In this document: piece after piece, positions 1 through 61,668 of the stretch
Layout: the number at the start of each line of letters is the position of its first letter
How positions within the stretch are numbered: position 1 is the first letter of the stretch
NCBI GenBank assembly: GCA_026770705.1
Contig: JANJGN010000059.1
Coordinates: forward strand, 2,170,001 to 2,234,000
Origin: Isurus oxyrinchus
Taxonomy: Eukaryota
Direction of reading: 5' to 3'
DNA length: 64,000 bases
Notes under the pieces: generated by a model
Seen by the model: the letters and a program-made list of their open reading frames with translations, nothing else
Database searches by the model: none
What the model was told of the DNA's origin: nothing
Position numbers and translations under genes: made by a program

Positions 1-429
1 ATCTAAAAAGACATGTTTACTCACAGTCAAATAGGCACATGCACAAACAACCTAACCTTCAGCAATTTCCCTCGGCTGGGGCCTGTCTTGACCGCGCACA
101 CAAACACACACACAAACAGATATACAATAAATAATTAAGATAAATTATACACTCTAGCATAAATTGACATTTAGTTGCCAAGTGGGGCTTCATACCCTAT
201 GCAGAGGAATACAACTGTACGTGTTTCTTTTATTTGATATAATGACTGACCCACAGGGTATAATGTTCGATCTGACTTGTAAAAATTAACTTGACAGCCA
301 ACACACAGATGGGTAAATTTAGCGTTAATTGTGAATTGGTCATGATAACTAATATACAAGATTTAAAGTAAAGCTAATTCTTGTATTTGTCTTGAAAACA
401 TTACATGGGGAGAAAAAAATGGTACCTGA

Positions 430-1867
430 TAAGCAATGAAATCAGAAGTTTTCTGAACTATGAGGAGGATAGTATGTAATTTCAAAAGGACATGGACAAG
501 TTAGTGGAATGGGTAGGCACTTGGTAGATAAAGTTGAATGCAAATAGATGCGAAATGCTTCATTTTTGTAGTGAGAACATGAGGAGAAGCAACATAAAAT
601 GAAGGAGACATCTCTGAAGGGAGTATGAGCAAAAGGACAATTCATTAAAGGTGGCAGTATATTTTGAGTAATTAGTAACTAAAGCAAAGCTGTATTTATT
701 GTAAAATAGAGGATAAGTGCAAGGAAGTTAGTTCATTTGTACAAATCACTAGTTTGGAATCCAGTTGAAGTATTACATAGAGCTCTGGGCAAGGAATGTG
801 AAGTTACCCTGTAGAGGACAGATAAGCTTCACGAGAATGTTTCCAGGTTTGAGCTTGGAGAAGTTGAAGGGATTGATGTTGGGTCCCTTGCTGTTTGTGG
901 AATATATAAACGATTCAGAATTGAATGTAGGAGGGTTGATCAGTAAGTTTGCGAATAACACAAATATTGGTGGGGTGGTAAATAGTGACTAGAATAGCTG
1001 TAGATTAGAGAATATAGATGCGCTGGTCAGATGGGCTGATCAGTGTCAAATGGAATATAACCCAGATAAGTGTGAGTTGTTTCACTTGTGCAGGACAAGC
1101 AAGGCACGGGAATGCACAATGAATTGTAGCTGGGAAGTATTGAGGATCAGAGGGACATGGGTGTGCATCTCCACCGGTCCCTTAATATAGCGAGGCATGT
1201 TGATAAGGTGGTTAAGAAGATAAAAGGGATACTTGCCGATATTAGATGAGGCATAGAATAAAAGAGCAGGGAGCTTATGCTTGAACAATATAAAACACTG
1301 GCTAGTCCACAGCTAGAGTATTGCGTGCAGTTCTGGATTCCTCAATTTGGGAAGGATGTGATTCCACTAGACAGAGTGCAGAGGGGATTTACCAGAAGTT
1401 GCCTGGGCTGGAGACCTTTAGTTATGAAGAGAGATTAGATAGATTGTTTTTTTTTCCCCTGGAGGAGAGGACATTGAAGGGGGAAATGACTGTTGTGTAT
1501 ATAATTATGAGGTGCATAGATGGGGTAGACAGGAAGGACTTTATCCCCCTTGGTGGAGGGATCCATAACCAGTGGGCATAGCTTTAAGGTAAGGTGCAGG
1601 AAGGTTTAGAGGGGATGTGAGGAAGAATTTTTTCACCAAGGGGGTTGTGGGAATCTGGAACTCACTGCCTGAAACTGTGGTGGAGACAGAAACACTCATA
1701 TCATTTAAGAAGTGTTTGGATATGCACTTGCGATGCCATGGCACACAAGGTGATGGGACCAGTGCTGGAAAGTGGGATTAGAATAGTTAGGTACTTGTTT
1801 GACTGGCACAGATCCGATGGACTGGAAAGGGTTATTTTCTGTGGTGAAGACCCCTATGACTCTATGA
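430..1867 (+). mobile_element. Decayed CR1 LINE ORF2/3' end fragments
   Basis: RT C-terminal peptides (LGPLLFVEYINDSE, ISKFANN ~ [23 protein letters not shown]) and 3' microsatellite tail 'ctatgactctatga' at ~1854-1867. Confidence 0.88.
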
Positions 1868-1869
1868 GT

Positions 1870-2391
1870 GTAAGTTAGGATTGTTGTCCTTGAAGAAGGG
1901 AAAGCTGAGAGGATATTTGATATGGCTATTTAGAATCATGAGTAATCCTTATTAAACAAGGGGAAATGGTGCCTTTTCGTGAAAGCACTCAGGGTCAGGA
2001 AGCTCAGTACTAAAAAAAAAAACTGCGGATGCTGGAAATCCAAAACAAAAACAGAATTACCTGGAAAAACTCAGCGGGTCTGGCAGCATCGACCCTTCAA
2101 CAGAACACAGTATTAAGGTCATCAAGAAAAGAAACACTGATAACATTAAATATTATGTTTTCTCACAGCGAGTGGTTTGAATCTGTAAAACAGTGACTGA
2201 GAGCTGGTGGAGGCAGGTTGAAATGAAGCATTCATTCGGGAATTAGACTGTTATCTGAAAATGAAGAAAGTGCAGGTTACGGGGAGAAGGCTGGAGAATA
2301 GAATTTGGTGAGTTGCTCATTGAGAGAGTCAGTGCAGACAAAATGGGCCAAATGGCCGCCTTCAACTTGGTAACAGTACTGTGATTCTGTT
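1870..2391 (+). mobile_element. Old CR1-type 3' end fragment
   Basis: 'aagctgagaggatatttga', 'ttctcacagcgagtggtt', tail 'ctgtgattctgt'; uninterrupted copy at ~52245-52650. Confidence 0.7.
2012..2107 (-). mobile_element. Short Penelope pLTR-derived insertion (internally deleted)
   Basis: Reverse complement of the pLTR tail (gcggatgctggaaatccaaaacaaaaacagaattacctgg); flanked by cagtact/cagtatt; absent from the paralogous site at 52371. Confidence 0.88.
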
Positions 2392-2610
2392 ACTTAACTT
2401 GATCCTTCCTTTTCCCTGTGTCCCTCCTATTTCAATCTCTGAATTTCTGCCTTTCGGTTCCAGCTTTAATTAGAATCAGTGAGAAAAAGTTACACTGGCG
2501 TAATTCCCAGTGCCGCCCGGCTTTAAGGATCATTGACCAACCTCCAGCCAGGGTCGCGCGTCATGACGTCACAACGGAGGGTAGGTGGTGACCCTTCCCG
2601 AATCTTTCGA

Positions 2611-2725: not shown

Positions 2726-2780
2726 ATCTTTCGAAAGAATAGGACCAGAGTTCAATTGGCCAATGATCTGCGAGCAACTC

Positions 2781-16720: not shown

Positions 16721-17197
16721 CATTTGATTCAGGTGTGGAATAATGTTTTGGGGCAGTTTAAAAAGTGCCTGACATTTTATTCATTATTTTTTGTGATGAA
16801 TTGCCAGCCCTCATCCATTTTAATCGGATAACTGAATGTTTAGAGTTAAAGAGGGCAGTAACTTCCCAAAGAAGCATTAAACAGAGTGGAGGAAGGCACT
16901 CTAACATTTGGAATTTCATGAATGAGTGGTAGCCCTCAAGTCAGTAAAACCACTAAAACAACATGATGCTGAGAGATGGGACTGATGGTATATTCCCTGT
17001 TTGATTACAGCTGCTGTTTTTATTAGTTAATTAATGTGATCAGTAGAAACATGTATTTGTAACATGGCAGCTCCATCTAAAAATCAACATATTCTTTCAC
17101 TGAAATCAAAATCATAATTTGTTTCTTCATATTTAAAGAAATAATAATAATTTGAACAATGTTGCAATTACAACATCCCTGAGGTGATCCCACAGGG

Positions 17198-17203
17198 TAT
17201 AAA
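17198..17203 (+). promoter_or_regulatory. Putative TATA box of GPCR gene A
   Basis: TATAAA ~90 bp upstream of the ATG in 'tcccacagggtataaattaaaggctttgggaatgtatcacctca', identical in gene C. Confidence 0.7.
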
Positions 17204-17289
17204 TTAAAGGCTTTGGGAATGTATCACCTCAATATTTAAGACAGAGGGATTGCCAGCAGCTCAAAGGGACACATCACTTCACACTGAAA

Positions 17290-17356
17290 ATGCATCGTCC
17301 AATTTACATGGTTCAAAAAATTTTCTACCCAGTCCTTGCTGTTATTGGTGTTCCTG
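17290..17356 (+). CDS. GPR139/GPR142-like GPCR gene A, exon 1
   Basis: MHRPIYMVQKIFYPVLAVIGVP+g followed by a GTAAGT donor (phase 1); joins exon 2 in frame to complete TM1 (GVP-VNLLGIVIL); homologous exon in gene C. Confidence 0.9.
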
Positions 17357-17659: not shown

Positions 17660-18110
17660 AGGGGAAACTCACACTGAGTGTGGGACACCAACCAGGGTGT
17701 GATACCTTTTCCCAATGACAATATATTTTTGGGTGCATATGTTAGTGTAGAATTTTACTCAGTGTGGGTCACTAAACAGAGTTGAGTCCAGTCAACATGT
17801 ATTACTGGGAATACCTCTGAATTGGGAATTGTACTGAGTGAGGGTCACTAATCAGAGTCGAGTACCTGGCCCCAGACACCACTTTTTACTGAGAGTACCT
17901 GTCAGTGCCAAGCTGTACTAAGTGTGGGCCAGTCACCTGATTGGAATAATGATCAATCACCATTTATTACTGGGTATATCTTTCAGTGCAGAATTGTATT
18001 GAATGAAGGTCACAGAGCAGAATGGAATGCCTGATCCAAAAGATAATGTATTACTGGGGGTATTTGTCAGTGTAGAATTGCACTGACTGTGGGTCAGTAA
18101 GTGGAATAAA
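17660..18110 (+). repeat. Degenerate ~84-bp tandem repeat (6 units) in intron 1 of gene A
   Basis: 'gaattgtactgagtgtgggtcac'-like cores at ~17678, 17762, 17838, 17922, 18003, 18087. Confidence 0.75.
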
Positions 18111-23800: not shown

Positions 23801-26200
23801 ATAGAGTCACAGAGTCATATAGTTATCCAGCACAGATACAGGCCCTTCAGCCCATAGTTTCCACGCAGGCGATCATGCACCTATCGGCTTTTATCCAATT
23901 TTCCAAAAAATTCTCCCTTAGTCCTGTTGCTATGGCTTTTCAAGCGCTCATCAAAATTCCTCTCAAATTTTGTGAGCGTTCCTGACTCAACCATCCCCTC
24001 GGGCTGTGTACCCCCGATTTCAACTGCCGCCTGGATGAAAATAAAGTCCTCAGATCCCCTCCTATGCTCCGTGCCCTAACATATAATCTGTGAAACATGT
24101 TTATTGATGCCTCCAATAAGGGGAATCATTTCTTCTTATTTACTCTATCTATTCCCCTCGTAATTTTGCATACCTGTATCAATTTCCCCATTATCCTTCT
24201 CATCTCTATAGAAAACAACCCTGGCCTATCTTCTGGCTTAATAGCTTAAGCGCTTCAGCCCAGCCCTATCCTCATGAATCTCCTCTCCACCCTCTCCAGT
24301 GCATTCACACCCTTCAAATAAGGTGGCGAAAAGGACTGCACTGGGTACTTGATCTGTGGCCTATCGAGCGTTTATGCACTCCAACATAACCTCCCTGCTC
24401 TTATATTCTTGGCCTTGGCAATTAAAGGCAAGTATCCCATGTTTCTTCTTACCCACCTGATCTACCTGTGCATGCTGCCTTCAGATGTCTTTGGACATGT
24501 ACAGCAATGTCCCTCTGATCCCCCATACTTCCTAAGATCTCTTCCTCTTCCCTTGACGTGTTGGATCTCCCAAAATGTATCACCTCTCACATCTGAGGAT
24601 TTAGTTCCAGTTGCCATTGCACTGCCCATCCCTGCAGCCCATCTGTTTCTTCGTGTAATATAAAGCGAAAGCAATACCCCCAATTTCCATGTCATCTGCG
24701 AATTTACTGATCATACTCCCTTTTCTCACACCTAAATCATTATTATACACTACACACAGCAAATGACACAGCACCAACCCCTGTGGTACACTACTCACCA
24801 CAGGCTTCCAATCTCAAAAACAATCTTCGATCATTACACTCTGCTTTCTGCCACTTAGCCAATTTTGGATCCAATTTGCCAAATTGCCCTGGGTGCCATA
24901 GGTTCTTAAATTCTTGACCATTCTCCCAAGCGGGACCGTGTCAGAAGGCATGTTGCATCAATTGCACTGCCCTTATCTTCACAATTAGTAAACTCCTCGA
25001 AAAAAATCAATAACATTTTTTTACTCATGATCTCTGCCTGCCAAAGGCATGCTGACCATCACTGATTAATCCCTGCCTCCCCAAATGGAGATTAACACTG
25101 TCCCTCAGATTTTTTTCCCAATCATTTCCTTTCCACTTATGTCAATCTCACTGGTCTGTACTCCTCTGCTTTACCCCTTCGACCCTAACTGAATAATGGT
25201 AGAACATTCTCTGTCCTCCTGTCCTCTGCCACACCTCCTTTGGCCAGAGACAATTTGAAAACTAGTCTCAGAGCTAAGCAATCTCCTCCCTTGTCTCACA
25301 GAGCAGTCTATGTTATATCTCATCTGGGCATAAGGATTTATCCACTTTGTAGCCAGCTTAAACCGATAATACCTTTCCCTGTCAATGTTTATTTGTTCAA
25401 GTATATAAGAGCCCCTTTTACTGATATCTAAACCAACATCGCCCTTCTCAATAGTGAGCACAGGTGAATGGTACTCATTTAAAACATTAACTGCGTCCTC
25501 CAGCTCCACACGCAGTTTGGCACATTGATCCCTAATGTGCCATAATTATTCCCTGGTTATCGTCTTGCCCCTAAAATATTTATATAATGCCTTTGGAGTT
25601 TCCTTTATCTTGTCCACAAGTTTGTTTTTCATGCAAACTCCTCACTCTCCGAATTACTTATTTAAGTAGCCTTCTACATTTTCACTGGATTCACAGTGTT
25701 CTCATTTTGAATTCAATTGTATATTTTGAAAGTGTCTTTCAGCTTCACAATTCCACATTGTATATATAAATGATGAAGGATGGTGATCCCAGCGCTGATC
25801 CTTGTGGAACACCAATTTCGACCTCACACCAACCTGAATAAATCCCTTTAACACCTCCTCTCTGTGTTCTACTATTGTAGTCAGCTTGCTGTCCATTCTG
25901 CTGCATGTCCCCTAAGTGCACTTGCCCTGCCAATAGCATTGATTCTTTTCTGTTTTAACATCCCAAAGGCCTTTAGAAAATCAAAGTGATTCACATCTAT
26001 CTTATCGTATCGACGATTTATAATGTTGTTTGTAAATAATTCAGTATAATTGGTCAATAGCGACATTGGTTTTGGAATATGTGCTGCGTTTGCATGTTCT
26101 GTGTATCTAGATTTTTTTGCCATTATTGATTCTTTTTATTCCTTCCATTGACGCTGTGCTGTCTGCTCTAGTGTTCTTTGGACTTGTTTTATTTTCTGAC
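23800..26200 (-). mobile_element. Decayed CR1 fragments
   Basis: Tail 'atagagtcacagagtcat' at ~23800; VSSVPQGLVL..MISKFADD (24601..24801); GVPQGSALG (25745..25939). Confidence 0.82.
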
Positions 26201-27354
26201 ATAAAAACTTAATATGAAAGCCGCCTTTCCGGTCTTTGATGATGTTCTCATTAGTATTAATGAACAAATAATAGTATCTCTGATGTTTATATTTATTTTC
26301 ATTTAGATGTTTGGATGAAATCCAGCTAATCCAAATGTTTTGCTTCATTTTTGAACAGCTTATCAAATGCATGCATTTAATACATTGGAGTTTTTGATTT
26401 GAATTTATTCACTAATATCTGACAGTTTAATTCATTTCCTCAGAGGTCTCTCTCCCTTCTTCAGGCTCTGAATTCTCATCCACTGGCTCACTCTGCTCCC
26501 ACTGTCCCACAACACGAGTGACATCCATCCTTCTGAGCTCTGGGCTGAGGTCCATCAGCACATTTCCAGTTTTGCCCATTCATTGCTCCAAACACCAGTA
26601 AACACGAACTGCCCTTAAACTAACAGTGGGAGGGATTCCGCCTGACAGACAGCATGAGACCATTTTCCGGCCTGTTTACACCCACCACCTCCTGGTAATC
26701 AGCGGACTCCGTTTGGAAATGAATTGTTTTGTTTAATCGAAGGCAGTTAGCTCATGTACCAAACATCAACATAATGCCAAACTGAATTAGTTGGATACCT
26801 TTCAAAAACTGTTGAATAGATTATTGTGATAAATGCCAATGACTTTACTTTCCTGAGGGTAAGTTACAACAGAACAGACTCACGACAAATCACTGGGATA
26901 TTGCAGTTAGAGGACAAGCAGCAGGGTGGTCACAAAGCTGGTTTCATTCAATATGGGTTCCTGATGGATCTCCTCTCTTCCTCCACTGGCTCCGGTCTGG
27001 GAATGAAAATCTTGAGAGATTCCTCACCCTGATTCCCGTACAGGGATCCTATTGGAAGGTAAAGGTGTGTGGGCTGGGGTGTGAACATTTGGATATTCCA
27101 TACTGAATGCAGCTCGTGGTGAGAGCATGGATGTGCACTTTGTTCCAATACTGTTTAGGTTGCTGAGTAGTTGAATGATTTTGTTGGTTCCATTCTGGCA
27201 TGTTGATGACATTTTCAGCCATTTCCTTCTTTTGCTTTGGTTTGGAAAATTTGATCAAAATTTCTTCTAATTTCCACTGTCCTTTCTCTTCGCAGGGTTT
27301 GTCTCTCATACTTCCCGTTGGTCCCTGAAATGCTCTATCTCTATTTCCAAGAAC

Positions 27355-27740
27355 AGGTTATCCAACAATATCTATTAAAATTGCGTGACTCCCACAGCTC
27401 ACTTGATTGTAATTCATCCCTCCCCACTCGCCAGAAAGAATCTGTTCCAATATCCCCCCAGTTTCCCCATCTTTTGCCTTTAGTCCATCTGTTCTGACGA
27501 TGCTCCATTCCACACCAGTGCTCCTGAAATTTCTCCGCTGTTCATCAGGCCAGATTCCCCTCCATTGTGCTTTACAGGACAGTCTGCCATGTCCATCTAA
27601 TTGTACATTTTACTGCTTTTACCCCCTTCTCCTTCAGGGAGGAACGATGGTAAGGTTATCGTTTTCTCACCTTCAACCCCAGCATCCTTGACATTCAACC
27701 CGTAAGGCTCCAAATCTCTGCCACATCCAGGTTAGCTCAC
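27355..27740 (+). mobile_element. Old Penelope RT fragment (duplicated at ~33130-33515)
   Basis: Diverged match to 3410-3790 ('gactcccacagct', 'catctgttctgacgatgct'). Confidence 0.72.
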
Positions 27741-28769
27741 CAACTCCCATCGCGTTCCAGCCCACATGCTGATACAGTTGTAGATTCCTGGGAATTTTAA
27801 ACTACAATGTTGGTCCAATTAATTGAGTTGGCAACATATTTCAAAGTGTCATCTCTCAGCACATTCTAAAAAATCAAGACTGGTAAATAATCTTTGGCAT
27901 TTTAACTATTTGATTAACTTTGAATCTTCCAATCATTACATAATTGAGTGTCAACTTATCTAATTCAGTTACCAATAGTCACTTCTCTAAACATTTTCAA
28001 ATATAAGGGCCAGTATGCTTAATGAGATTGCGTTCTGTCCATCTGGAAGAAATCTTCATTTTTAATTCAGCATTAAGTAAATATGGCATCTTAACAATCT
28101 CAGCTAACTACAGTGAATATAATGCAAAATGTCACAAAATAATGTCATTGCTGAAGATACAGGGCATTCTATTAAATTCTGCTGAATGAAAAATTGCTAC
28201 TTCACCCTGGTTAAAATATTCAGTCACATCCAACATCTGCTCCTCTTCAGCTTTTGGCGTAAGTACAAGACATGTTACCACTGAACATTTATCTCTCTCT
28301 GTTCCACTTTCCAAAATCAAAAACACACTTTGCAAGTGAAAAGTGAAATGCTTGAGTTTCTCGCAAGTCAGTCAATGTGTTCGCTGCTCACAATAGACTG
28401 TGGGAGAGAGATAGATGAATAGAGAGAGAGAGAGGGATGTGATGCGATCCCAGGCTATTGATATGTAACTGAGCATTATCTCATTCCCAGACGGCGATTT
28501 GGACCACGGGGACACGGTGGGTGAGAGAAACTGACAAAATCTGGTCCCTGTTTGATGTGTGGGGTGGTGGGGGGTTGGTGGTGCCTGGTTCTGATCTTGA
28601 TAGGAATGGTCTGATTCAGAGGGGAGACCGTGTGTGTGTTTGTGAGGGGTGGGGGGGTGAAGGAGTGGGGGTGGAGGTCTGATCCAGAACGGGGTATGAT
28701 CATGAGGGAGATCTAACACTGTGGGCTGTGGTGCTTTCCTCCTTAGCGCTGTCTGACCCTTTGGGAACT

Positions 28770-29853
28770 GAAGGTGAAGGAATCCTTAGGAGGAAGTGAC
28801 CAGAATATGATAGAATTTTCCGTGCAATTTGAGAGGAAAAAGCTCGAATCAGATGTAACGATACTACAGTTGAATAAAGGCATCTACAGAGGCATGAGGG
28901 AGGAGCTGGCCAGAATTGACTGGGAGATCAGCATAGCAGGAAAGACAGTGAAACAGCAATGGCAGGAGCTTCTCGGAGTGATTTTGGAGACACAGCAAAA
29001 ATTCATCCCTAGGAACAAGAAGCATACTAAAGGGAGGATGAGGCAACCATGGCTGACAAGAGAAGTCGGGGACAGCATAAAAGCTAAAGGAAAAGCATAC
29101 AATGCGGCGAAGAGCAGTTGGAAACCAGGAGATTGGGAAGTCTACAAAGACAAACAGAGGACAACTAAAAAAGAAATAAGGAGGGAGTAAATTAAATATG
29201 AGGGTAAACTAGCCAGTAACATAAAAGAAGATTGCAAGAGATTTTTTAGTTATACGAAGGGTAAGAGAGAGGCAAAAGTGGACATTAAGCTACTGGAAAA
29301 TGACGCTGGAGAAGTAGTAGTGGGGAACAAAGGAATGGTGGAGGAACTGAATTGGTACATTGCATCAGTCTTCACGGTGGAAGAAGCGATTATCATCCCC
29401 AAAGTTCAAGAGAGTCGGGGGACAGAGGTGAGTATTGTGGTCAGTACCAAGGAGAAGGTGCTAGGAAAACTGCAAGGTCTGAAGGTGGATAAATCACCTG
29501 GACCAGATGGATTACACCCCAGAGTTCCAAAGGAGATAGCTGAAGAGATAGTGGAGGCGTTAGTGGTGATCTTTCCGGAATTACTGGAGTTAGGGAGGGT
29601 CCAAGAAACTGGAAAATCGCTAATGTAACCCCCCCCCCCACCCCGTGTAAGAAGGCAGTGAGACAAAAGGTGGGAAATTACAGGCCATTTAGCCTGACCT
29701 CAGTCGTTGGTAAGAGTTTAGAGTCCATTATTAAGGATGAGATTTCAGAATACTTGGAAGTGCTTGGTAAAATAGGGCAAAGTCAGAATGGTGTCATCAA
29801 GGGGAGTTCATGCTTGACAAATCTGTTAGAATTCTTTGAGGAGGTAACGAGTA
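28770..29853 (+). mobile_element. CR1 ORF2 internal fragment (duplicated at ~34531-35604)
   Basis: ESLGGSDQNMIEF, QPWLTREV, KSPGPDGLHPRV, GNYRPFSLTSVVGK, SCLTNLLEFFEEVT. Confidence 0.92.
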
Positions 29854-30032
29854 AATATTGCGGTTACAATTGCTGCATTCCAGTCTACAATTTTAATTTC
29901 TAACACCACCGCCCCCATCCTCCATCTCTCCTCGCACCCTTTATCGGCCCTGAAACCCTGTGCTTGTTGCCTGGATCAGGCACGGAAAAGGTCAAAACAT
30001 TAATATCCTGGATCTTCTCCTTTCTCTGACAG

Positions 30033-30985
30033 TTAATTTACTGGGAATTGTGATCCTGTGCCGTGGAAAGTGTGGACTCTCTACCTGCACCACTCGTTAC
30101 ATGGTGGCCATGGCGACGGCGGATCTCCTGGTCATTATCGCAGACCCCATACTGAACCAAATCAGTAGTTATTATTTCCCAGTGACTTTCCTGGACATCA
30201 CCCATGTGTGTCGTATACGCGCTGTCCTGCTGCTTGCAGCCACGGACTGTTCCGTCTGGTTCACCGTCAATTTCTCCTTTGATCGATTTGTGGCCATTAG
30301 TTGCCAGAAGCTGAAAAGAGAATATTGCACCGGGAAAACAGCGGCTGTGGTTCTAGCGACAACCGGTATCCTGCTCTGTTTAAAGAACGTCCCCTGGTAC
30401 TTTTCATTTGAAGCTGCAGAGATAATCGACAATATTCCGCGTTTCTGTCAGACAAAGCCAAGCATTTATACTGCTCCCGGATGGGTTGCATTTTCCTGGT
30501 TTGAGAAGGTTTTAACCCCATTGCTCCCATTCGGTTTAATTCTGCTGATCAACGCTCTGACAGTCAGACACATTTTAGTGACCAGTCGAGTCCGGAAGGG
30601 ACTGAGGGCTCAGAGTAAGGGAGAGAATCGCAGTGACCCAGAGATGGAGAGCAGGAGGAAGTCTATGATTTTACTCTTCACCATATCCGGCACCTTCATC
30701 CTCCTATGGTCGGTGTTAGTTATAAAATTCTTCTATTTGGATGTGAGAGGATTACTTTACCTCACCGTTTCTGAATATATATTACAGCAAGTCGGATTTA
30801 TGCTGCGGAGTTTAAGTTGCTGCACAAATACATTTATTTATGGGGTCACTCAGTCCAAGTTCAGAGAGCAGATCAAGAATGTGGTAATATACCCGGTTAC
30901 ATTAATGATTCAATTAATGAAGAAAATGACTGACAGCTGCCCCAGCCAATCACATATCTCCTCCCACAGGCGGACAGTTGCGTAA
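30033..30985 (+). CDS. GPR139/GPR142-like GPCR gene A, exon 2A (intact; spliced product 339 aa)
   Basis: Polypyrimidine tract + 'ctgacAG' acceptor at 30031-30032; class A motifs ATADLL (TM2), C3.25, SFDRFVAI, LLPF (TM5), NTFIY (TM7), KFR helix 8. Confidence 0.92.
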
Positions 30986-31153
30986 ACCAAAAAGGGAGCT
31001 CCGCATGATGACTGACACCAGCCTCAGCCAATCCGAGAGATCCACCCCTTACTGACAGCTGGCTTTACCAATCAGTGGATCAGTCCCATGACTGACACAC
31101 ACGTCAGCCAATGGGGCAGCTTCAGCTTTTCACCCACAGCAGCCTCAGACATT
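30927..31153 (+). promoter_or_regulatory. ~41-bp-period TGAnTGACAG-N9-CCAAT array after exon 2A (6 units, cut by the duplication junction)
   Basis: Units at ~30927, 30968, 31009, 31049, 31089, 31130. The repeat is seen directly; regulatory function is inferred. Confidence 0.6.
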
Positions 31154-31155
31154 CG

Positions 31156-31297
31156 AGATAAAAACAAAGAAAACTGCGGATGCTGGAAATCCAAAACAAA
31201 AACAGAATTACCTGGAAAAACTCAGCAGGTCTGGCAGCATCAGCGGAGAAGAAAAGAGTTGACGTTTCGAGTCCTCATGACCCTTCGACAGAACTTC
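31156..31297 (-). mobile_element. Penelope pLTR-derived element at the duplication junction
   Basis: Reverse complement of 4711-4852, including an intact hammerhead-like motif at 31257-31295. Confidence 0.93.
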
Positions 31298-31298
31298 G

Positions 31299-34200
31299 AC
31301 ATTGATCCCTAATGTGCCATAATTATTCCCTGGTTATCGTCTTGCCCCTAAAATATTTATATAATGTCTTTGGAGTTTCCTTTATCTTGTCCACAAGTTT
31401 GTTTTTCATGCAAACTCCTCACTCTCCGAATTACTTATTTAAGTAGCCTCCTACATTTCCACTGGATTCACAGTGTTCTCATTTTGAATTCAATTGTATA
31501 TTTTGAAAGTGTCTTTCAGCTTCACAATTCCACATTGTATATATAAATGATGAAGGACGGTGATCCCAGCGCTGATCCTTGTGGAACACCAATTTCGACC
31601 TCACACCAACCTGAATAAATCCCTTTAACACCTCCTCTCTGTGTTCTACTATTGTTGCCAGCTTGCTGTCCATTCTGCTGCATGTCTCCTAAGTGCACTT
31701 GCCCTGCCAATAGCGTTGATTCTTTTCTGTTTTAACATCCCAAAGGCCTTTTAAAATCAAAGTGATTCACATCTATCTTATCGTATCGACGAGTTATAAT
31801 GTTGTTTGTAAATAATTCAGTATAATTGGTCAATAATGACATTGGTTTTGGAATATGTGCTGCGTTTGTATGTTCTGTGTATCTAGATTTTTTTGCCATT
31901 ATTGATTCTTTTTATTCCTTCCATTGACACTGTGCTGTCTGCTCTAGTGTTCTTTGGACTTGTTTTATTTTCTGACATAAAAACTTAATATGAAAGCCGC
32001 CTTTCCGGTCTTTGATGATGTTCTCATTAGTATTAATGAACAAATAATAGTATCTCTGATGTTTATATTTATTTTCATTTAGATGTTTGGATGAAATCCA
32101 GCTAATCCAAATGTTTTGCTTCATTTTTGAACAGCTTATCAAATGCATGCATTTAATACATTGGAGTTTTTGATTTGAATTTATTGACTAATATCTGGCA
32201 GTTTAATTCACTTCCTCAGAGGTCTCTCTCCCTTCTTCAGGCTCTGAATTCTCATCCACTGGCTCACTCTGCTCCCACTGTCCCACAACACGAGTGACAT
32301 CCATCCTTCTGAGCTCTGGGCTGTGGTCCATCAGCACATTTCCAGTTTTGCCCATTCATTGCTCCAAACACCAGTAAACCCGAACTGCCCTTAAACTAAC
32401 AGTGGGAGGGATTCCGCCTGACAGACAGCATGAGACCATTTTCCGGCCTGTTTACACCCACCACCTCCTGGTAATCAGCGGACTCCGTTTGGAAATGAAT
32501 TGTTTTGTTTAATCGAAGGTAGTTAGCTCATGTACCAAACATCAACATAATGCCAAACTGAATTAGTTGGATACCTTTCAAAAATTGTTGAATAGATTAT
32601 TGTGATAAATGCCAATGACTTTACTTTCCTGAGGGTAAGTTACAACAGAACAGACTCACGACAAATCACTGGGATATTGCAGTTAGAGGACAAGCAGCAG
32701 GGTGGCCAGAAAGCTGGTTTCATTCAATATGGGTTCCTGATGGATCTCCTCTCTTCCTCCACTGGCTCCGGTCTGGGAATGAAAATCTTGAGAGATTCCT
32801 CACCCTGATTCCCGTACAGGGATCCTATTGGAAGGTAAAGGCGTGTGGGCTGGGGTGTGAACGTTTGGATATTGCATACTGAATGCAGCCCGTGGTGAGA
32901 GCATGGATGTGTGTTTTGTTCCAATACTGTTTAGGTTGCTGAGTATTTGAATGATTTTGTTGGTTCCATTCTGGCATGTTGATGACATTTTCAGCCATTT
33001 CCTTCTTTTGCTTTGGTTTGGAAAATTTGATCAAAATTTCTTCTAATTTCCACTGTCCTTTCTCTTCGCAGTGTTTGTCTCTCATACTTCCCGTCAGTCC
33101 CTGAAATGCTCTATCTCTATTTCTGAGAACCGGTTAGCCAACAATATCTATTAAAATTGCATGACTCCCACAGCTCACTTGATTGTAATTCATCCCTCCC
33201 CACTCGCCGGAAAGAATCTGTTCCAATATCCCCCCAGTTTCCCCATCTTTTGCCTTTAGTCCATCTGTTCTGACGATGCTCCATTCCACACCAGTGCTCC
33301 TGAAATTTCTCTGCTATTCATCAGGCCAGATTCCCCTCCATTGTGCTTTACAGGACAGTCTGCCATGTCCATCTAATTGTACATTTTACTGCTTTTACCC
33401 CCTCCTCCTTCAGAGAGGAACAATGGTAAGGTTATCGTTTTCTCACCTTCGACCCCAGCATCCTTGACATTCAACCCGTAAGGCTCCAAATCTCTGCCAC
33501 ATCCAGGTTAGCTCACCAACTCCCATCGCATTCCAGCCCACATGCTGATACAGTTGTAGATTCCTGGGAATTTTAAACTACAATTAATTGAGTTGGCAAC
33601 ATATTTCAAAGTGTCATCTCTCAGCACATTCTAAAAAATCAAGACTGGTAAATAATCTTTGGCATTTTAACTACTTGATTAACTTTGAATCTTCCAATCA
33701 TTACATAATTGAGTGTCAACTTATCTAATTCAGTTACCGATAGTCACTTCTCTAAACATTTTCAAATATAAGGGCCAGTATGCTTAATGAGATTGCGTTC
33801 TGTCCATCTGGAAGAAATCTTCATTTTTAATTCAGCATTAGGTAAATATGGCATCTTAACAATCTCAGCTAACTACAGTGAATATAATACAAAATGTCAC
33901 AAAATAATGTCATTGCTGAAGATACAGGGCATTCTATTAAATTCTGCTGAATGAAAAATTGCTACTTCATCCTGGTTAAAGTATTCAGTCACATCCAACA
34001 TCTGCTCCTCTTCAGCTTTTGGCGTAAGTACAAGACATGTTACCACTGAACATTTATCTCTCTCTGTTCCACTTTCCAAAATCAAAAACACACTTTGCAA
34101 GTGAAAAGTGAAATGCTTGAGTTTCTCGCAAGTCAGTCAATGTGTTCGCTGCTCACAATAGACTGTGGGAGAGAGAGATGAATAGAGAGAGAGAGGGATG

Positions 34201-37019
34201 TGATGCGATCCCAGGCTATTGATATGTAACTGAGTATTATCTCATTCCCAGACGGCGATTTGGACCACGGGGACACGGTGGGTGAGAGGAACTGACAAAA
34301 TCTGGTCCCCGTTTGATGTGTGGGGTGGTGGGGGGTTGGTGGTGCCTGGTTCTGATCTTGATAGGAATGGTCTGATTCAGAGGGGAGACTGTGTGTGTGT
34401 TTGTGAGGGGTGGGGGGGTGAAGGAGTGGGGGTGGAGGTCTGATCCAGAACGGGGTATGATCATGAGGGAGATCTAACACTGTGGGCTGTGGTGCTTTCC
34501 TCCTTAGCGCTGTCTGACCCTTTGGGAACTGAAGGTGAAGGAATCCTTAGGAGGAAGTGACCAGAATATGATAGAATTTTCCGTGCAATTTGAGAGGAAA
34601 AAGCTTGAATCAGATGTAACGATACTACAGTTGAATAAAGACAACTACAGAGGCATGAGGGAGGAGCTGGCCAGAATTGACTGGGAGATCAGCATAGCAG
34701 GAAAGACAGTGAAACAGCAATGGCAGGAGCTTCTCGGAGTGATTTTGGAGACACAGCAAAAATTCATCCCTAGGAACAAGAAGCATACTAAAGGGAGGAT
34801 GAGGCAACCATGGCTGACAAGAGAAGTCGGGGACATAAAAGCTAAAGGAAAAGCATACAATGCGGCAAAGAGCAGTTGGAAACCAGCAGATTGGGAAGTC
34901 TACAAAGACAAACAGAGGACAACTAAAAAAGAAATAAGGAGGGAGTAAATTAAATATGAGGGTAAACTAGCCAGTAACATAAAAGAAGATTGCAAGAGAT
35001 TTTTTAGTTATACGAAGGGTAAGAGAGAGGCAAAAGTGGACATTAAGCTACTGGAAAATGACGCTGGAGAAGTAGTAGTGGGGAACAAAGGAATGGTGGA
35101 GGAACTGAATTGGTACATTGCATCAGTCTTCACGGTGGAAGAAGCGATTATCAAGTTCAAGAGAGTCAGGGGGCAGAGATGAGTATGGTGGTCAGTACCA
35201 AGGAGAAGGTGCTAGGAAAACTGCAAGGTCTGAAGTTGGATAAATCACCTGGACCAGATGGATTACACCCCAGAGTTCCAAAGGAGATAGCTGAAGAGAT
35301 AGTGGAGGCGTTAGTGGTGATCTTTCCGGAATTACTGGAGTTAGGGAGGGTCCAAGAAACTGGAAAATCGCTAATGTAACCCCCCCCCCACCCCGTTTAA
35401 GAAGGCAGTGAGACAAAAGGTGGGAAATTACAGGCTAATTAGCCTGACCTCAGTCGTTGGTAAGAGTTTAGAGTCCATTATTAAGGATGAGATTTCAGAA
35501 TACTTGGAAGTGCTTGGTAAAATAGGGCAAAGTCAGAATGGTGTCATCAAGGGGAGTTCATGCTTGACAAATCTGTTAGAATTCTTTGAGGAGGTAACGA
35601 GTAAATGTTGCGGTTACAATTGCTGCATTCCAGCCTACAATTTTAATTTCTAACACCACCGCCCCCGTCCTCCATCTCTCCTCGCACCCTTTATCGGCCC
35701 TGAAACCCTGTGCTTGCTGCCTGGATCAGGCACGGAAAAGGTCAAAACATTAATATCCAGGATCTTCTCCTCTCTCTCTGGCAGTTAATTTACTGGGAAT
35801 TGTGATCCTGTGCCGTGGAAAGTGTGGACTCTCTACCTGCACCACTCGCTACATGGTGGCCATGGCGACGGCGGATCTCCTGGTCGTTATCGCAGACCCC
35901 ATACTGAACCAAATCATTACTTATTATTTCCCAGTGACTTTCCTGGACATCACCCATGTGTGTCGTATACGCGCTGTCCTGCTGCTTGCAGCCACGGACT
36001 GTTCCGTCTGGTTCACCGTCAATTTCTCCTTTGACCGATTTGTGGCCATTAGTTGCCAGAAGCTGAAAAGAGAATATTGCACCGGGAAAACAGCGGCTGT
36101 GGTTCTAGCGACAACCGGTATCCTGCTCTGTTTAAAGAACGTCCCCTGGTACTTCTCATTTGAAGCTACAGAGATAATCGACTATATTCCGCGTTTCTGT
36201 CAGACAAAGCCAAGCATTTATACTGCTCCCGGATGGGTTGGATTTTCCTGGTTTGAGAAGGTTTTCACCCCATTGCTCCCATTCGGTTTAATTCTGCTGA
36301 TCAACGCTCTGACAGTCAGACACATTTTAGTGACCAGTCGAGTCCGGAAGGGACTGAGGGCTCAGAGTAAGGGAGAGAATCGCAGTGACCCAGAGATGGA
36401 GAGCCGGAGGAAGTCTATGATTTTACTCTTCACCATATCCGGCACCTTCATCCTCCTATGGTCGGTGTTTGTTATAAAATTCTTCTATTTGGATGTGAGA
36501 GGATTACTTTACCTCACCGTTTCTGAATATATATTACAAGCAAGTCGGATTTATGCTGCGGAGTTTAAGTTGCTGCACAAATACATTTATTTATGGGGTC
36601 ACTCAGTCCAAGTTCAGAGAGCAGATCAAGAATGTGGTAATATACCCGGTTACGTTAATGATTCAATTAATGAAGAAAATGACTGACAGCTGCCCCAGCC
36701 AATCACATATCTCCTCCCGCTGGCGGACAGTTGCGTAAACCAAAAAGGGAGCTCCGCATGATGACTGACACCATCCTCAGCCAATCCGAGAGATCTACCC
36801 CTTACTGACAGTTGGCTTTACCAATCAGCGGATCAGCCCCATGACTGACACACACGTCAGCCAATGGGGCAGCTTCAGCTTTTCACCCACAGCAGCCTCA
36901 GACATTCGAGATAAAAACAAAGAAAACTGCGGATGCTGGAAATCCAAAACAAAAACAGAATTACCTGGAAAAACTCAGCAGGTCTGGCAGCGTCGGCGGA
37001 GAAGAAAAGAGTTGACGTT
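31299..37019 (+). repeat. Tandem segmental duplication, unit 2
   Basis: Collinear with 25522-31266, with scattered substitutions and small indels. Confidence 0.96.
35785..36738 (+). pseudogene. Duplicated GPCR exon 2B, frameshifted at the start of TM7
   Basis: Acceptor 'ctggcAG' at 35783-35784; extra A at ~36539 (ttacaagcaagtc vs ttacagcaagtc) moves NTFIY/helix 8 to another frame (ORF 36553..36738); premature stop at 36686. Confidence 0.85.
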
Positions 37020-37118
37020 CTGTCGAAGGGTCATGAGGACTCGAAACGTCAACTCTTTTCTTCTCCGCCGATGCTGCCGGACCTGCTGAGTTTTTCCAGG
37101 TAATTCTGTTTTTGTTTT
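36908..37118. mobile_element. Inverted (fold-back) Penelope pLTR insertion with 14-bp TSD
   Basis: ~74-bp inverted arms (~36946-37019 / 37045-37118) around the hammerhead core; TSD agcctcagacattc at 36894-36907 and 37119-37132. Confidence 0.92.
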
Positions 37119-37762
37119 AGCCTCAGACATTCAACTGACTGTTGCCACAGCCAATCAAAATGTCTTTTCGGCTGACTGACAGTGGCTTCATCCAATCAAG
37201 GAGCGGCAGTCTTGTGCTCACTGTTACATTGGGCACTCAGGATGTTCTTCTTCTGTTCCAACAGCCGCCGCAGTAAATCAAAGATAATCAACTGCTGACT
37301 GAGTGTTCAGCGTTTAATCTCATTACACCCGCTGGCTGTAAACAGATTCATCCAATCACGGTGCTGCAAGCAGTGACTCAGAAAGTTCAGCCAATCAGCG
37401 AGCTTCAGCCTGTGACCAACCAAGGTTTCAGCCCATCAAGGAATTGAACCCGACAGCCGCAACATCCAATCAGCAAGCTCCGACCAATGACTGACTGGAT
37501 TTCAAACAACCAACAATCCCCAGCTAATTCCCACCCTCTAGCCCAGAGTATCATCCAATCATAGCGTTCAATCTTTGACTGACAGTTCTTACAACACAAG
37601 GTGGGTCCCCAAATCATGCCGGGATCTGCCGTGTCGGATTGGAGTGTTTCAGTTTCAGACTGACAGCTATAATATCAAATCGGAGAGATGCGACTGCGCT
37701 CGAATTTACTTAAATCCGACCAAAAGCCGTGCGTATTGCTCAGCTCCGTCCAGCCTTTCGCT

Positions 37763-37893
37763 ATTTCAACTCTTTCCTGGACTCGAAATCAAGTTCTGTC
37801 GAAGGGTCATGAAGACTCGAAACGTCAACTCTTTTCTTCTCCGCCGACGCTGCCAGACCTGCTGAGTTTTTCCAGGTAATTCTGTTTTTGTTT
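37763..37893 (+). mobile_element. Penelope pLTR-derived insertion with 12-bp TSD
   Basis: TSD cagcctttcgct at 37751-37762 and 37894-37905; matches 4683-4813. Confidence 0.93.
37792..37830 (+). ncRNA. Minimal hammerhead-like motif (CUGUCGA core, intact GAAACGUC)
   Basis: AGTT-CTGTCGA-A-GGGTC/atgaa/GACTC-GAAA-CGTC-AACT. Confidence 0.75.
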
Positions 37894-38199
37894 CAGCCTT
37901 TCGCTGTTCCCTTTGTGATTGACAGCAGCATTAGCCAATCAGTGAGTTGCTTGCATATAATTCACCAAGCGAAATTATGCCGCTTTGTTCGATTTCCCCA
38001 GTGTCACCACCTTCCCAGCGACATAACGTCACCACGCTCGAACTGGCGAGAGGGCGGGCAATGATCCTCAAAGCGGTGCCGCACTGATAATTACGGCAGT
38101 GCAACTAGATTCCATTGATTGGAAATAAAGCGGGATCCAAATGGCAGAAATTTAGAGAATGAAATAGAAGGGACACAGGGAAGGTGAAGGAGGAAATTA

Positions 38200-47689: not shown

Positions 47690-48005
47690 AGTTCACCTCA
47701 GCGATGTGACTGTTGCTGGAGAGTTCACCTCAGTGATGTGACTGCTGCTGGATAGTTCATCTGAGCTATGTAATTACTGCTGGAGAGACCACGCGAGAGA
47801 TGTGGCTAATGCTGGAGAGACAACCCGAGCGATTTAACTGCTGCTGGAGAGACCACCCGAGCGATGTAACTGCTGATGGAGAAACCACCCGAGCGATGTA
47901 ACTGCTGCTGGAGAAACCATCCGAGTGATGTAACTGCTGCTGGAGAGATCACCCCAGTGATATGACTGCTGCTGGAGAGACCAAACGACCGATGCGACAA
48001 CTGCT
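47690..48005. repeat. 32-bp minisatellite (~9-10 units)
   Basis: Unit 'cccgagcgatgtaactgctgctggagagacca' at 47824, 47856, 47888 etc. Confidence 0.9.
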
Positions 48006-48946
48006 GGAGGGTCCATTGGAGCGATGGCTGATATAATCGGCAGCAATGATTAATTTAAAAAATGCTGTAAAACTCCATTGATAAATATTAAATTCATACA
48101 AAGTGAAGAATTCCATACAGATTCCCTTGCTGCTGTCCACATAATTATTTCCTGTAGTTTAAATATGTCCCATGTTGAACAGTTAACTTGCAAACTACGT
48201 GTATAAATCCAGCGGCCTGCTGGTCCCAGCTGCACGGCAGCTTCAGTTGTGCCTCGAGTAGAGTTTCACACGGATTCCTTCTCTCTGTGGCACAAGATCA
48301 ATATCTACATTTTTGGATATGTAGGTTTTGAAATCCAAGAATTCGAAGTGTTTACAAGCTTTGAACGGAATATATCTTTGTAAGAATGACTTACGTTCAC
48401 AAACTTGCTTGAGAAATTCTGCTCAGTTCCACAGGACTGAGTTCTATGAATTTGGCTAAAGTTTGCTGCAAGGATAGTGATTTGCCCTCAGCATTATGTA
48501 CATCCAAAATGATAAATTTGGTAGCTTATTATTTGAGGACATCATCGATGATTTTGCTTTCCAAACATCAAGAAAGAAAACATTTGAATGTTTTTGATTC
48601 ATATGATGTGCAAACAGATTAGCTGCAGTTTGTATTACTGCTTCCTCTTAATAAGCTGCTGATTGGTCTAACAGCTTTTCTGTTTGTGTCGTCAAAAGTT
48701 TTCATTTTTACCAATTAACAAATCGTGAACATATTTTTCTTTCAAATTATTATCTAATGCAAACAGTTATTTTGTAAGATGTATTTTAGTTCCAAATTAA
48801 TGTGATATTTGTGCCTTTACTGTTGCAAATTTGCAAAGATAAAATTTGCAGTCCACTTTCTGTGACATTAGGAAACCTTTAAAGGAATTGGCCGTTTTTT
48901 AAGCTTGACATACCTCAGCGTCCCAGAATGTCTTAATCCAGTCCTG
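48000..48946 (+). mobile_element. hAT DNA transposon relic (C-terminus and right end)
   Basis: ALSIMYIQND..LLFEDIIDDFAFQTSRKKTF at ~48484-48585 resembles the hAT dimerisation-domain terminus; 'ttaatccagtcctg' at ~48933-48946 resembles a CAGGGCCGGATTAA-type TIR. Confidence 0.5.
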
Positions 48947-50230: not shown

Positions 50231-50523
50231 NNNNNNNNNNNNNNNNNNNNNNNNNNNNNNNNNNNNNNNNNNNNNNNNNNNNNNNNNNNNNNNNNNNNNN
50301 NNNNNNNNNNNNNNNNNNNNNNNNNNNNNNNNNNNNNNNNNNNNNNNNNNNNNNNNNNNNNNNNNNNNNNNNNNNNNNNNNNNNNNNNNNNNNNNNNNNN
50401 NNNNNNNNNNNNNNNNNNNNNNNNNNNNNNNNNNNNNNNNNNNNNNNNNNNNNNNNNNNNNNNNNNNNNNNNNNNNNNNNNNNNNNNNNNNNNNNNNNNN
50501 NNNNNNNNNNNNNNNNNNNNNNN
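50231..50523. other. Assembly gap (293 N)
   Basis: Run of N. Confidence 1.
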
Positions 50524-52650: not shown

Positions 52651-53290
52651 CTGATATTTAACTTGATCCTTCCATTTCCCTGTGTCCCTCCTATTTCAAT
52701 CGCTGAATTTCTGCCTTTCGGTTCCAGCTTTAATTAGAATCAGTGAAATATAGTTGCACAGCCGTAATTCCCGGGGCCGCTCTGCTTTAAGGATCATTGA
52801 CCAACCTCCAGCCAGGATCACGCATAATGATGTCATGACGGTGGGTTGTTGGTGATCCTTTCAGAATCGAAGCAATTGGGCCGAATTTCGATTGGCCAAT
52901 GATCTGCAAGCAACTCTGCGATTGACAGCAGCGTAAGCCAATGGCTAAGTGGGCAGGGATAGGTTTTGCTGAGATGTGAAAGGCGCTCAGCTAGTGGTCA
53001 GATTTTGAAGTGGGATTTTCATTACTCCAGGAAATTCCAGGGCTGTTGCATCTCTTCGATTGGATATTAGAGCTGTCACTCTCATGCTGAAACGCTCCAA
53101 TCAGGCAGGGCAGGTGTCCCTCACACCTTCGGGACTCTCCATTTGTTTGAGGAGCTATCAGTCAATTATTGAACGAATATGATTGAACAAAATTCCGTGT
53201 TAGATGGTAGGAATTGGTTTGTGGTGTCTGATTAATTGAAGTGCTGGCCGCAGCAGCCGGAATTCTCTGATTGGCTGAGGTGTCTGACAG

Positions 53291-54192
53291 TCAGGTTTTT
53301 TTCTTCATTAATTGAATAATTGATGTAACCGGATAATTCACCGCTTTCTTCATCTGCTCCCGGAACTTGGACTGAGTCACAGCGTAAATAAATGTGTTTG
53401 TGCAACAACTTAAATTCAGCAGCATCAATCCGACTTGTTGTAAGATATATTCAGGATAGGTGAGGTAAATTAACCCTCTCAGATCAATATAGAAGAATTT
53501 TATAACAAACACCGACCACAGGAGGATGAATGTGCCGGATATGGTGAAGAGTAAAATCATAGACTTCCTCCTGCTCTCCATCTCTGGGTCACTGTGATTC
53601 TCTCCCTTATTCTGAGCCCTCAGTCCCTTCCGGACTCGACTGGTCACTAAAATGTATCTGACTGTCAGAGCGTTGATCAGCAGAATTAAACCGAATGGGA
53701 GCAATGGGTTTAAAACTTTATCAAACCAGTTAAATCCAACCCATCCGGGATCAGTAAAAATGCTTGGCTTTGCCAAACAGCCCCATGGTACATCGTTGAT
53801 TATCTGTCCAGGATCCAGTGTAAAGTATTGGGGGATGTTTTTTAAACTGAGCAGGATACCGGTTGTCGCTTGAACCACAGCCGCTGTTTTCCCGGTGCAA
53901 TATTCTGTTTTCAGCTTCGGGCAACGAATGGCCACAAATCGATCAAAGGAGAAAGTGACGGTGAACCAGACAGAACAGTCCAGGGCTGCAACCTGCAGGA
54001 CAGCACGAACACGACACACAGGAGTGAGGTACAGGAAACTCAGTGGGAAATAATAATAATTGATCTTGTTCAGTATGACGTTTGTGATAATGACCAGTAG
54101 ATCCGCCGTTGCCATGGCCACCAGGTAGCGAGTGGTGCAGGTGGAGAGGCCGCACTTTCCCCGGGACAGGATCACAATTCCCAGTAAATTAA
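53291..54192 (-). CDS. GPR139/GPR142-like GPCR gene C, exon 2 (intact; spliced product 321 aa)
   Basis: Acceptor 'ctctctctgacAG' at 54194-54193; 7TM motifs ATADLL, SFDRFVAI, NPLLPF, NTFIY; clear paralog of exon 2A. Confidence 0.93.
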
Positions 54193-54469
54193 CTGTCAGA
54201 GAGAGGGGAGAAGGGCCTGGAAATTATTGATTAAACATTCTCCATGTCTGTCCCTCACAGGGAGGACAGGATTTCAGTAGTAAAACAGAGTTTGGTCACA
54301 GGAGAACAGGCAGGCGACTGGCTGGTGAGTATTTCAGCTTTTAGCTTTGTTTTTAGATTGAAATTAGCAGCTGAGTTACAATCACTTGTTGATTATTATT
54401 AACTTTAGTAATTTAATGATTGGGGGAAATTAAACAAACAATAAAGGCGAAACAACAAAAAAGAGCCAG

Positions 54470-57450: not shown

Positions 57451-57469
57451 AGAAGAGTGAGATAGGAGA

Positions 57470-57705
57470 AGCGTGGCCATTAACAGTGAGAGAGTGAGTG
57501 AGGAGCAACGGGGCCATTAGCAGTGAGAGACTGAGAGAGGAGAAGCGGGGCCATTAGCAGTGAGAGAGTGAGAGAGGAGAAGCGGGGCCATTAGCAGTGA
57601 GAGAGTGAGAGAGGAGAAGTGGGGCCATTAGCAGTGAGAGAGTGAGAGAGGAGAAGCGGGGCCATTAGCAGTGAGAGAGTGAGAGAGGAGAAGCGGGGCC
57701 ATTAG
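57470..57705. repeat. 37-bp minisatellite (~6 units)
   Basis: Unit 'agaagcggggccattagcagtgagagagtgagagagg'; degenerate units resume at 58025-58200 after a CR1 3' end. Confidence 0.92.
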
Positions 57706-60814: not shown

Positions 60815-61290
60815 TGGAGTAATTCTGTTCTGGTTACTGACCTACACTCAATGCCATTCAGCACTGTCAGATATAACCATAAATAATTGTTGACTGGAGT
60901 CAGTTATTCCACTCTGGTTACTAACCCACACATAGTACAATTTGACACTATCAGATACAGTAATTGAAAGATTAGTGACTGTCGTCAGGCATTGAATTGT
61001 GTTTACTAACCCACAATTAAGACAATTTGACACGAACAGATAAAGTCAGTGAATGGTTGGTGACTGGAGTCAAGGTATTCCACTCTGGTTATTGACACAC
61101 ACTTAGTACAATTTGACATTAACATATAGACTCAAAAACACATGGCCACTGGAGTGAGGTGTTCCAATCTGGTTACTAACACATACTTAGGACAATTTGA
61201 CACGTACAGGCACAGTCTGTGACAGAGTGGTGACTGTGGCCAGGTATTCCACTGATTAATGACCCACACTCAGGGTGATTTTCCTCTGAC
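60815..61290 (-). repeat. Degenerate ~84-bp tandem repeat (6 units) in intron 1 of gene C
   Basis: 'tggttactaacccacac..agtacaatttgacac' cores at ~60831, 60915, 61000, 61086, 61170, 61253. Confidence 0.8.
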
Positions 61291-61604: not shown

Positions 61605-61668
61605 CAGGAACACCTATAACAGCAAGGATTGTGTAGAATATTTTCTCAGCCACATCAATTGATAGCAT
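61605..61668 (-). CDS. GPCR gene C, exon 1
   Basis: MLSIDVAEKIFYTILAVIGVP+g then a GTGAGT donor; 64+902 nt = 322 codons in frame. Confidence 0.9.

Follow-up and report, generated by a model that had tools for sequence, protein, structure and literature searches.

Three GPR139-like receptor genes in a 64,000-nucleotide (nt) stretch of the Isurus oxyrinchus genome (contig JANJGN010000059.1, positions 2,170,001 to 2,234,000; here called the window, to which all coordinates refer) carry, at the end of their coding sequence, an array of tandem units that combine a putative PBX/PREP decamer with a CCAAT box. We refer to these genes as A (30033-30985, + strand), B (35785-36686, + strand), and C (54192-53291, − strand); the open reading frames (ORFs) at these positions are the second exons of class A G protein-coupled receptors (GPCRs). 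The array is a decayed tandem repeat of the minisatellite type, made up of head-to-tail units that are homologous even outside their motifs, and its unit carries what matches the published DECA-CCAAT geometry for PBX/PREP and NF-Y (plus Sp2). Judging from its motifs, the array probably is or was an enhancer. The more specific reading that we prefer, that homotypic TALE/NF-Y sites make it a 3′ enhancer or a chromatin opener, by now redundant and partly eroded, we hold tentatively, at a probability of roughly 0.45.

A decayed tandem repeat at the receptor stop codon

The array in B (36680-37941) consists of 22 phase-defined units, mostly of 40 to 41 nt; C has about 8 units and A has 6. The arrays are made up as follows.

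36680..36907, + strand: B array block 1, units 1 to 6, starting at 36680, 36721, 36762, 36802, 36842, and 36883
37132..37750, + strand: B array block 2, units 7 to 21, more decayed; unit 8 (37173) is perfect
37916..37941, + strand: B last unit, a perfect DECA-CCAAT, inverted in place in C (52919-52944)
30927..31154, + strand: A array, a duplicate of B units 1 to 6
52919..53293, − strand: C array, in which unit 1 is followed directly, in register, by the counterparts of B units 16 to 21 and then by the inverted last unit

All of the units listed in the initial annotation of this stretch (36680, 36721, 36762, 36802, 36842, 36883, 37132, 37173, and 37916) exist, and the array starts where that annotation had placed it, at the end of the coding sequence in A (30927), B (36680), and C (53293, − strand). 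In C, this position is exactly the TGA stop codon. The continuous 40- to 41-bp period that had been proposed holds for 15 of the 19 insert-free intervals in B (the other four are 34, 37, 39, and 48 nt), but two inserts derived from a retrotransposon tail had been overlooked. Without them, the B array is 897 nt long and its autocorrelation peaks at lag 41 (0.353 versus a median of 0.253). Tandem Repeats Finder (TRF) listed no array at the B region, and an nhmmer profile search of the window turned up nothing convincing beyond A, B, and C, every match with an E value below 2.5 lying within one of the three.

The sequences between the motifs, previously described as nearly unique, proved to be homologous. 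Pairwise identity in the non-motif columns is 33%, versus 25% for shuffles, and none of 2,000 shuffles reached the observed value; the units therefore descend from one repeat.

Searching the window for TGAnTGACAG-N9-CCAAT with at most two mismatches gave 16 matches where 1.18 were expected; 15 of the 16 fall within the arrays of the three genes. The recurrence of the decamer with a CCAAT box, as originally claimed, thus stands as a statistical pattern, but the exact decamer TGAnTGACAG occurs only five times in the window (four times in B) and only 5 of the 22 B units have a perfect core. At least 9 of the 10 core bases are present in 8 of the 22 units, and CCAAT is in phase in 11 of the 22. 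Within block 1, units 1, 3, and 5 have a perfect GAnnGAC-11-CCAAT core, and unit 6 is merely 25 nt long. The full TGATTGACAG decamer is exact in a single B unit (37916), the common form having C at position 4, which GAnnGAC permits. Unit 19 has a reverse-orientation CCAAT at a nearly in-phase position (37638-37642), which is kept in C (53097-53101).

The array unit agrees with a composite site described for vertebrate promoters and enhancers. The TALE/NF-Y/Sp2 composite has been defined as GAnnGAC-11bp-CCAAT, with a model of why spacings of 8 to 9 or 13 bp fail (bioRxiv 10.64898/2026.02.16.706105), and an identical 11-bp bias emerged from an analysis of ENCODE data (PMC7793273); one review counts the geometry as TALE-10bp-CCAAT under its own counting scheme (PMC11802806). 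The two motifs are found together in zebrafish and are bound jointly (PMC6023610), and five of eight such composite elements drove reporters in that species (bioRxiv 10.1101/720102). Exact GAnnGAC-11 bp-CCAAT sites number 10 in the window versus 0.21 expected, and all lie in the three arrays (5 of the 22 units in B, 3 in A, and 2 in C). A scan of spacings in B and C alone returned seven exact sites at a spacing of 11 and none at spacings of 4 to 10 or 12 to 21. The PBX-PREP/NF-Y identity and fixed spacing that had been suggested therefore hold and are sharpened to the canonical form. The peak at 11 establishes the canonical geometry for the seed unit but does not by itself indicate selection, because tandem duplication would copy a single spacing.

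Conservation is biased toward the motifs, and most of the bias is old

The initial annotation predicted that conservation would differ from column to column. We took the literature-defined core as a mask, used columns 11 to 17 as the inner spacer, and calculated pairwise identity among the 22 B units. Conservation was nonuniform in the predicted direction, with values of 0.576 for the core and 0.317 for the inner spacer, a contrast that is inflated because the motif in part guided the placement by eye of the block 2 units. None of 1,500 neutral simulations with uniform rates (on a star or a duplication tree) reached this contrast; with rate variation, 4 of 1,500 did so at gamma 2 (either tree shape) and 16 of 1,500 at gamma 1. 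For units 1 to 10, which keep a strict step of 40 to 41 nt, the nulls reached the contrast in 5, 14, 41, 38, and 48 of 1,500 runs. The uniform divergence expected of a neutrally decaying satellite was not what we found, with the reservation that a registration bias is possible.

Comparison of B with C gave a more modest picture. Over all shared units, the core is identical at 57 of 70 positions (81%) and the other columns at 97 of 148 (66%; P = 0.011); this count supersedes one restricted to four recognizable units (35/40 versus 45/73; P = 0.003). In the continuous distal block, the core is identical at 38 of 50 positions (76%) and the other columns at 81 of 119, and the flanks of the two genes are about 75 to 76% identical (193/259 and 461/605). 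Since the contrast between core and flank is this weak, most of the motif bias must be old. The bias accumulated since the B/C split is weak, and recent constraint, if there is any, is confined to a few units: the first, the twentieth, and the last. Indels fell outside the composite in all five units with recognizable motifs, which is not significant (~0.12), and we did not use this as evidence.

C differs from B by an in-register jump from unit 1-2 to unit 16, with the loss of about 14 units, and by the inversion of the last unit, whose composite is perfect in both genes. Partial self-complementarity of the unit ends is the probable cause of the inversion, and the survival of the composite in either orientation suits a double-stranded DNA site. 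A is no independent case but a recent duplicate of B, and because both sit in one tandem duplication of 97.8% identity, A and B amount to a single observation. Their arrays differ at seven positions, none of them among the 60 core positions, which is not significant (~0.12 by chance).

The array is common to two shark species within one receptor clade

The nearest relatives of these receptors are "putative GPR139" proteins of Cetorhinus maximus, with 78 to 82% identity (1,816 matches in a protein search). The GPR139 name comes from automatic annotation, and the proteins belong to a chondrichthyan "probable GPR139" class A GPCR expansion with more than 1,800 relatives. We read the distribution of the array from proteins whose frames pass the family stop codon, an approach in which back-translation is ambiguous and only the first ~100 bases past the stop are visible. 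Of 147 proteins, 124 had no tail of sufficient length and one had no anchor; some of the tails classed as "other" are probably products of mis-spliced models.

Five Cetorhinus proteins (P0003, P0004, P0005, P0121, and P0123) read into units 1 to 3, in two different frames; P0004 and P0123 have the same tail. In these five tails (184 amino acids [aa]), 6 windows fit the composite exactly and 11 fit it with one mismatch. The 17 tails from outside the clade (694 aa) have no exact window (four with one mismatch), although an array further downstream is possible in these genes, and the receptor bodies (40,810 aa) likewise have none (38 with one mismatch). Several of the outside tails (from Heterodontus, Pristiophorus, Heptranchias, and Cetorhinus) have another 3′ untranslated region (UTR) start in common. 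That start is absent from the window and was not found displaced downstream either; a clean insertion is hence not shown. Used by itself in a search, the read-through tail retrieved nothing but the query from 39 candidates, a result of low power that is no evidence of absence.

In a quick, midpoint-rooted tree of 109 of 123 rows (14 were dropped for missing anchors), for which the only support values are those of the Shimodaira-Hasegawa-like approximate likelihood ratio test (SH-aLRT), A, B, and C form one branch with P0003 to P0005 and one unnamed record (SH-aLRT, 97). The array-bearing clade comprises A, B, and C with Cetorhinus XP_078390300-303 and XP_078391987. The array is thus common to two shark species in one lamniform subfamily on the evidence of these tails, and it is not shown to be family-wide; the earlier statement that each member of the receptor family carries it is not supported, as the tails that bear on the question confine it to a single clade.

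Host genes and their surroundings

The receptor genes have two exons. The genes and the flanks that they have in common are listed here.

17290..17356, + strand: A exon 1
30033..30985, + strand: A exon 2 (7tm_1, E = 7e-18); the reading frame enters the array for 59 nt
35785..36686, + strand: B, a copy of a GPR139-like class A GPCR that consists of exon 2 alone and has a 1-nt frameshift near 36540
53291..54192, − strand: C exon 2 (7tm_1), ending in a stop codon with which array unit 1 begins
61605..61668, − strand: C exon 1
25522..37019, + strand: recent tandem duplication giving A and B (25522-31266 and 31299-37019; 97.8% identity; 5.7 kb)
38024..38129, + strand: 3′ flank common to B, C, and D, with an octamer at 38024-38031 (perfect in D), a box at 38052, and a hexamer at 38124
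170..2604, − strand: D, a fourth paralogous 3′ flank, 85 to 92% identical to that of C, with a perfect octamer, presumably CRE-like, near 2571

We looked for an exon 1 belonging to B and found none, whereas those of A and C were both located. After the duplication, the single exon 1 of A has two tandem copies of exon 2 behind it, and the polyA region that once lay downstream of A belongs to B (31299-37019). The frameshift near 36540 marks either a pseudo-exon or an assembly error. At the D locus, a search of the window found neither a gene nor an array; the D break is occupied by a retrotransposon pair, and there is a short inversion at 2611-2723.

In the common 3′ flank, we take the octamer to be a cyclic AMP response element (CRE)-like site, the box at 38052 to be a GC box, and the hexamer at 38124 to be polyA-like. 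The hexamer aligns with ATTAAA at 52734 in C and at 2470 in D; the array lies between the stop codon and the first polyA-like hexamer common to all three. The ratio of observed to expected CpG in this flank is 0.9 to 1.0, versus a window median of 0.40.

The promoters of A (17020-17260, + strand) and C (61940-61690, − strand) share a TATA-like box (17198 and 61760), with two CCC-x-GG(G) motifs directly upstream of it and a TAATTA site ~170 nt further up. We take the CCC-x-GG(G) motifs to resemble EBF/Olf-1 sites and the TAATTA site to be homeodomain-like, a layout that to us recalls olfactory-receptor promoters and may point to expression of this orphan receptor family in sensory neurons.

Two inserts interrupt the B array.

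36908..37118, no strand assigned: insert 1, an inverted pair of a retrotransposon 3′ tail, with a 14-nt direct repeat (36894-36907 and 37119-37132); also the A/B duplication breakpoint
37763..37893, + strand: insert 2, a retrotransposon 3′ tail, with a 12-nt direct repeat (37751-37762 and 37894-37905)

Both are 97 to 98% identical to the end of a retrotransposon at 4682-4852. That two inserts arrived independently within 0.9 kb may indicate a preferred target or open chromatin. The direct repeats at both (36894-36907 and 37751-37762) begin with (C)AGCCT, a start that other inserts do not show. The retrotransposon is present as a tandem pair at 2611-8167 (98.8% identical) with a reverse transcriptase ORF and a VY..YIG motif, features from which we take it to be Penelope-like; Pfam reported only RVT_1 (E = 2e-6, below the Pfam cutoff). 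Copies of its 3′ tail lie near 2012, 19407, 31155, 36908, 37763, 39491, and 49357.

A second old tandem array, with a period of ~84 to 85 nt, lies in intron 1 of A (17690-18110, + strand) and C (60820-61275, − strand), and TRF listed further minisatellites at 47700-48009, 54460-54666, and 57454-57705 (periods of 32, 46/68, and 37). The assembly has a gap of 293 N at 50231-50523.

Enhancer, retroelement relic, or neutral repeat

Under the enhancer reading, the ancestor of one lamniform GPR139-like subfamily would have acquired, at its stop codon, a ~41-nt tandem repeat with a DECA-CCAAT unit, and selection acting for the host would have retained both motifs in their 11-bp geometry as the spacers diverged. 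PBX/PREP dimers would bind the decamer and NF-Y the CCAAT box, with Sp2 as a bridge, in a pattern repeated along the 3′ end of the gene, and the array would act at the DNA level as a homotypic enhancer or nucleosome-clearing platform. Its target might be the gene's own promoter, 8 to 14 kb upstream, or the cluster. Today it would be redundant and eroding, with few intact units per gene and a unit number that shifts by in-register recombination. An extension, in which the subfamily built a 3′ "super-site" by tandem amplification and carried it along with each duplication, unit number tuning the expression or choice probability of each paralogue, would make the array a pioneer-factor enhancer that is titrated by repeat number and has been maintained at least since the basking-shark lineage split off; we consider this extension rather unlikely.

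In favor of the simpler enhancer reading are the excess of exact composites at the canonical spacing, the motif-biased conservation, the intact composite in the inverted last unit, the compatible windows in the basking-shark tails, and the CpG-rich 3′ flank with its presumed CRE- and GC-box-like motifs. Several observations weigh against it: 17 of the 22 B units are imperfect, B has tolerated two inserts and is itself an exon-2-only, frameshifted copy, C has lost about 14 units, the core of the distal block (38/50) is kept no better than the flanks (~75%), the 3′ flank of D survives without an array (its gene likewise not being found), and the alignment of block 2 by eye favors the contrast on which the argument draws. 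The initial annotation had set a selected cassette against a decaying satellite; that opposition is not supported, given a decayed tandem repeat with homologous spacers, the units lost from C, and the inserts tolerated in B. Its argument from about four helical turns per unit also falls away. Helical phasing is not evidence here because tandem duplication itself gives a 41-nt period, and the phase is broken several times.

The chief rival is that a retroelement whose long terminal repeat (LTR) contained tandem DECA-CCAAT repeats in a U3-type enhancer inserted at the stop codon and took the place of the ancestral 3′ UTR. Selection on the element would then account for the motif bias, decay would have been nearly neutral since, and any enhancer-like action would be incidental. 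The architecture parallels the LTR12 U3 region, with its 5 to 17 repeats of ~41 nt and a conserved CCAAT; the array is confined to one clade and starts with TG, the 3′ UTR start expected from the tails of other paralogues is absent from the window, the bias since the B/C split is weak, and the order of repeats, CRE, GC box, and polyA hexamer (motif names that we presume) is LTR-like. Against this origin, the nhmmer search of the 64 kb found no copy independent of the genes, inspection of the B/C alignment revealed no CA end with a matching target-site duplication (which age could have erased), and we saw neither a conserved TATA box 3′ of the array nor a gag/pol remnant. Moreover, unit 1 begins exactly at the family stop-codon position with no unique leader, and the spacers, only 33% alike, differ among themselves far more than do the "closely related" subtypes of LTR12. 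We regard this origin as doubtful. Less credible than either is a neutral, decaying minisatellite that had the composite in its seed by chance, the column differences reflecting mutation-rate variation, conversion, or unit registration. The homologous spacers, the in-register deletion, and the tolerated inserts are what it predicts, the ~85-nt array in intron 1 of A and C shows that old arrays persist at these genes, and the core columns of the distal block diverge nearly like the flank. It is nevertheless unlikely, because simulations seldom reach the observed contrast even with strong rate variation, and because the best-kept columns are an independently published composite at its exact spacing.

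An RNA-level 3′ UTR element, with protein or microRNA sites or short hairpins that control mRNA stability or translation, would fit the position between the stop codon and the first common polyA-like hexamer and the partly self-complementary unit ends. We think it improbable: folding gave no signal (mean z of −0.14 for the sense and −0.36 for the antisense strand, with 2 of 21 units below −2 on each), there were no compensatory pair types, Rfam at its gathering threshold had no match in the window, and the composite survives inversion in C. The hairpin reading of the units was rejected for want of a folding signal and compensatory pairs. Finally, A and the five basking-shark proteins read into the array, as they would if it were a coding repeat that lengthens the receptor C terminus, but a period of 40 to 41 is no multiple of 3 and the read-through frames differ among paralogues, and the receptor of C, like most relatives, already ends at the first triplet; the frame inconsistency effectively refutes this reading, to which we give almost no credence.

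Comparison with known systems

If the array is functional, the TALE/NF-Y/Sp2 geometry, which in the cited papers has so far been described for mammals and zebrafish, would extend to cartilaginous fish. The paralogues, with ~6, 8, and 22 units and one inverted unit, constitute a natural dosage and orientation series, and the array offers an initial way into how a very large family of shark GPCRs is regulated. If it is instead an LTR relic or neutral, it is merely a clade marker. We found neither a tandem array of the composite nor a study of this receptor family in the open-access papers searched. The composite and a 41-nt CCAAT enhancer array are each already known.

The array has the same two motifs as the DECA-CCAAT composite of PBX/PREP, NF-Y, and Sp2, in the same order and with the same 11-bp spacing from GAnnGAC. 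Its units depart from the known decamer in that most have C instead of T at position 4 and most are decayed. Known DECA-CCAAT sites, as far as the sources describe them, stand singly or in small numbers in promoters and enhancers; the mouse Sp2 promoter has two canonical composites and a third at 10 bp (bioRxiv 10.64898/2026.02.16.706105). In the shark, by contrast, about 20 tandem copies begin at a stop codon. In MER57, unlike in the shark array, the TALE site is 3′ of CCAAT and ~50 bp away (PMC12065363).

The closest analogue is the 41-nt CCAAT repeat of LTR12. The U3 region of LTR12/ERV9 has 5 to 17 tandem repeats of ~41 nt, each with a conserved NF-Y CCAAT, as in the shark array, and the copy at the globin locus has been shown to have enhancer and chromatin-opening activity (PMC11853044). 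The partners differ: those of LTR12 are given as GATA-2, MZF1, and small MAFs, without the upstream TALE site that the shark unit has (PMC11853044; PMC12065363). LTR12 is, moreover, a dispersed primate LTR with close subtypes, whereas neither LTR termini nor dispersed copies of the shark array were found in the 64 kb. Should the shark array prove functional, it would mean that a composite site can multiply as a minisatellite and then be retained motif first, converging on the 41-nt CCAAT period of LTR12.

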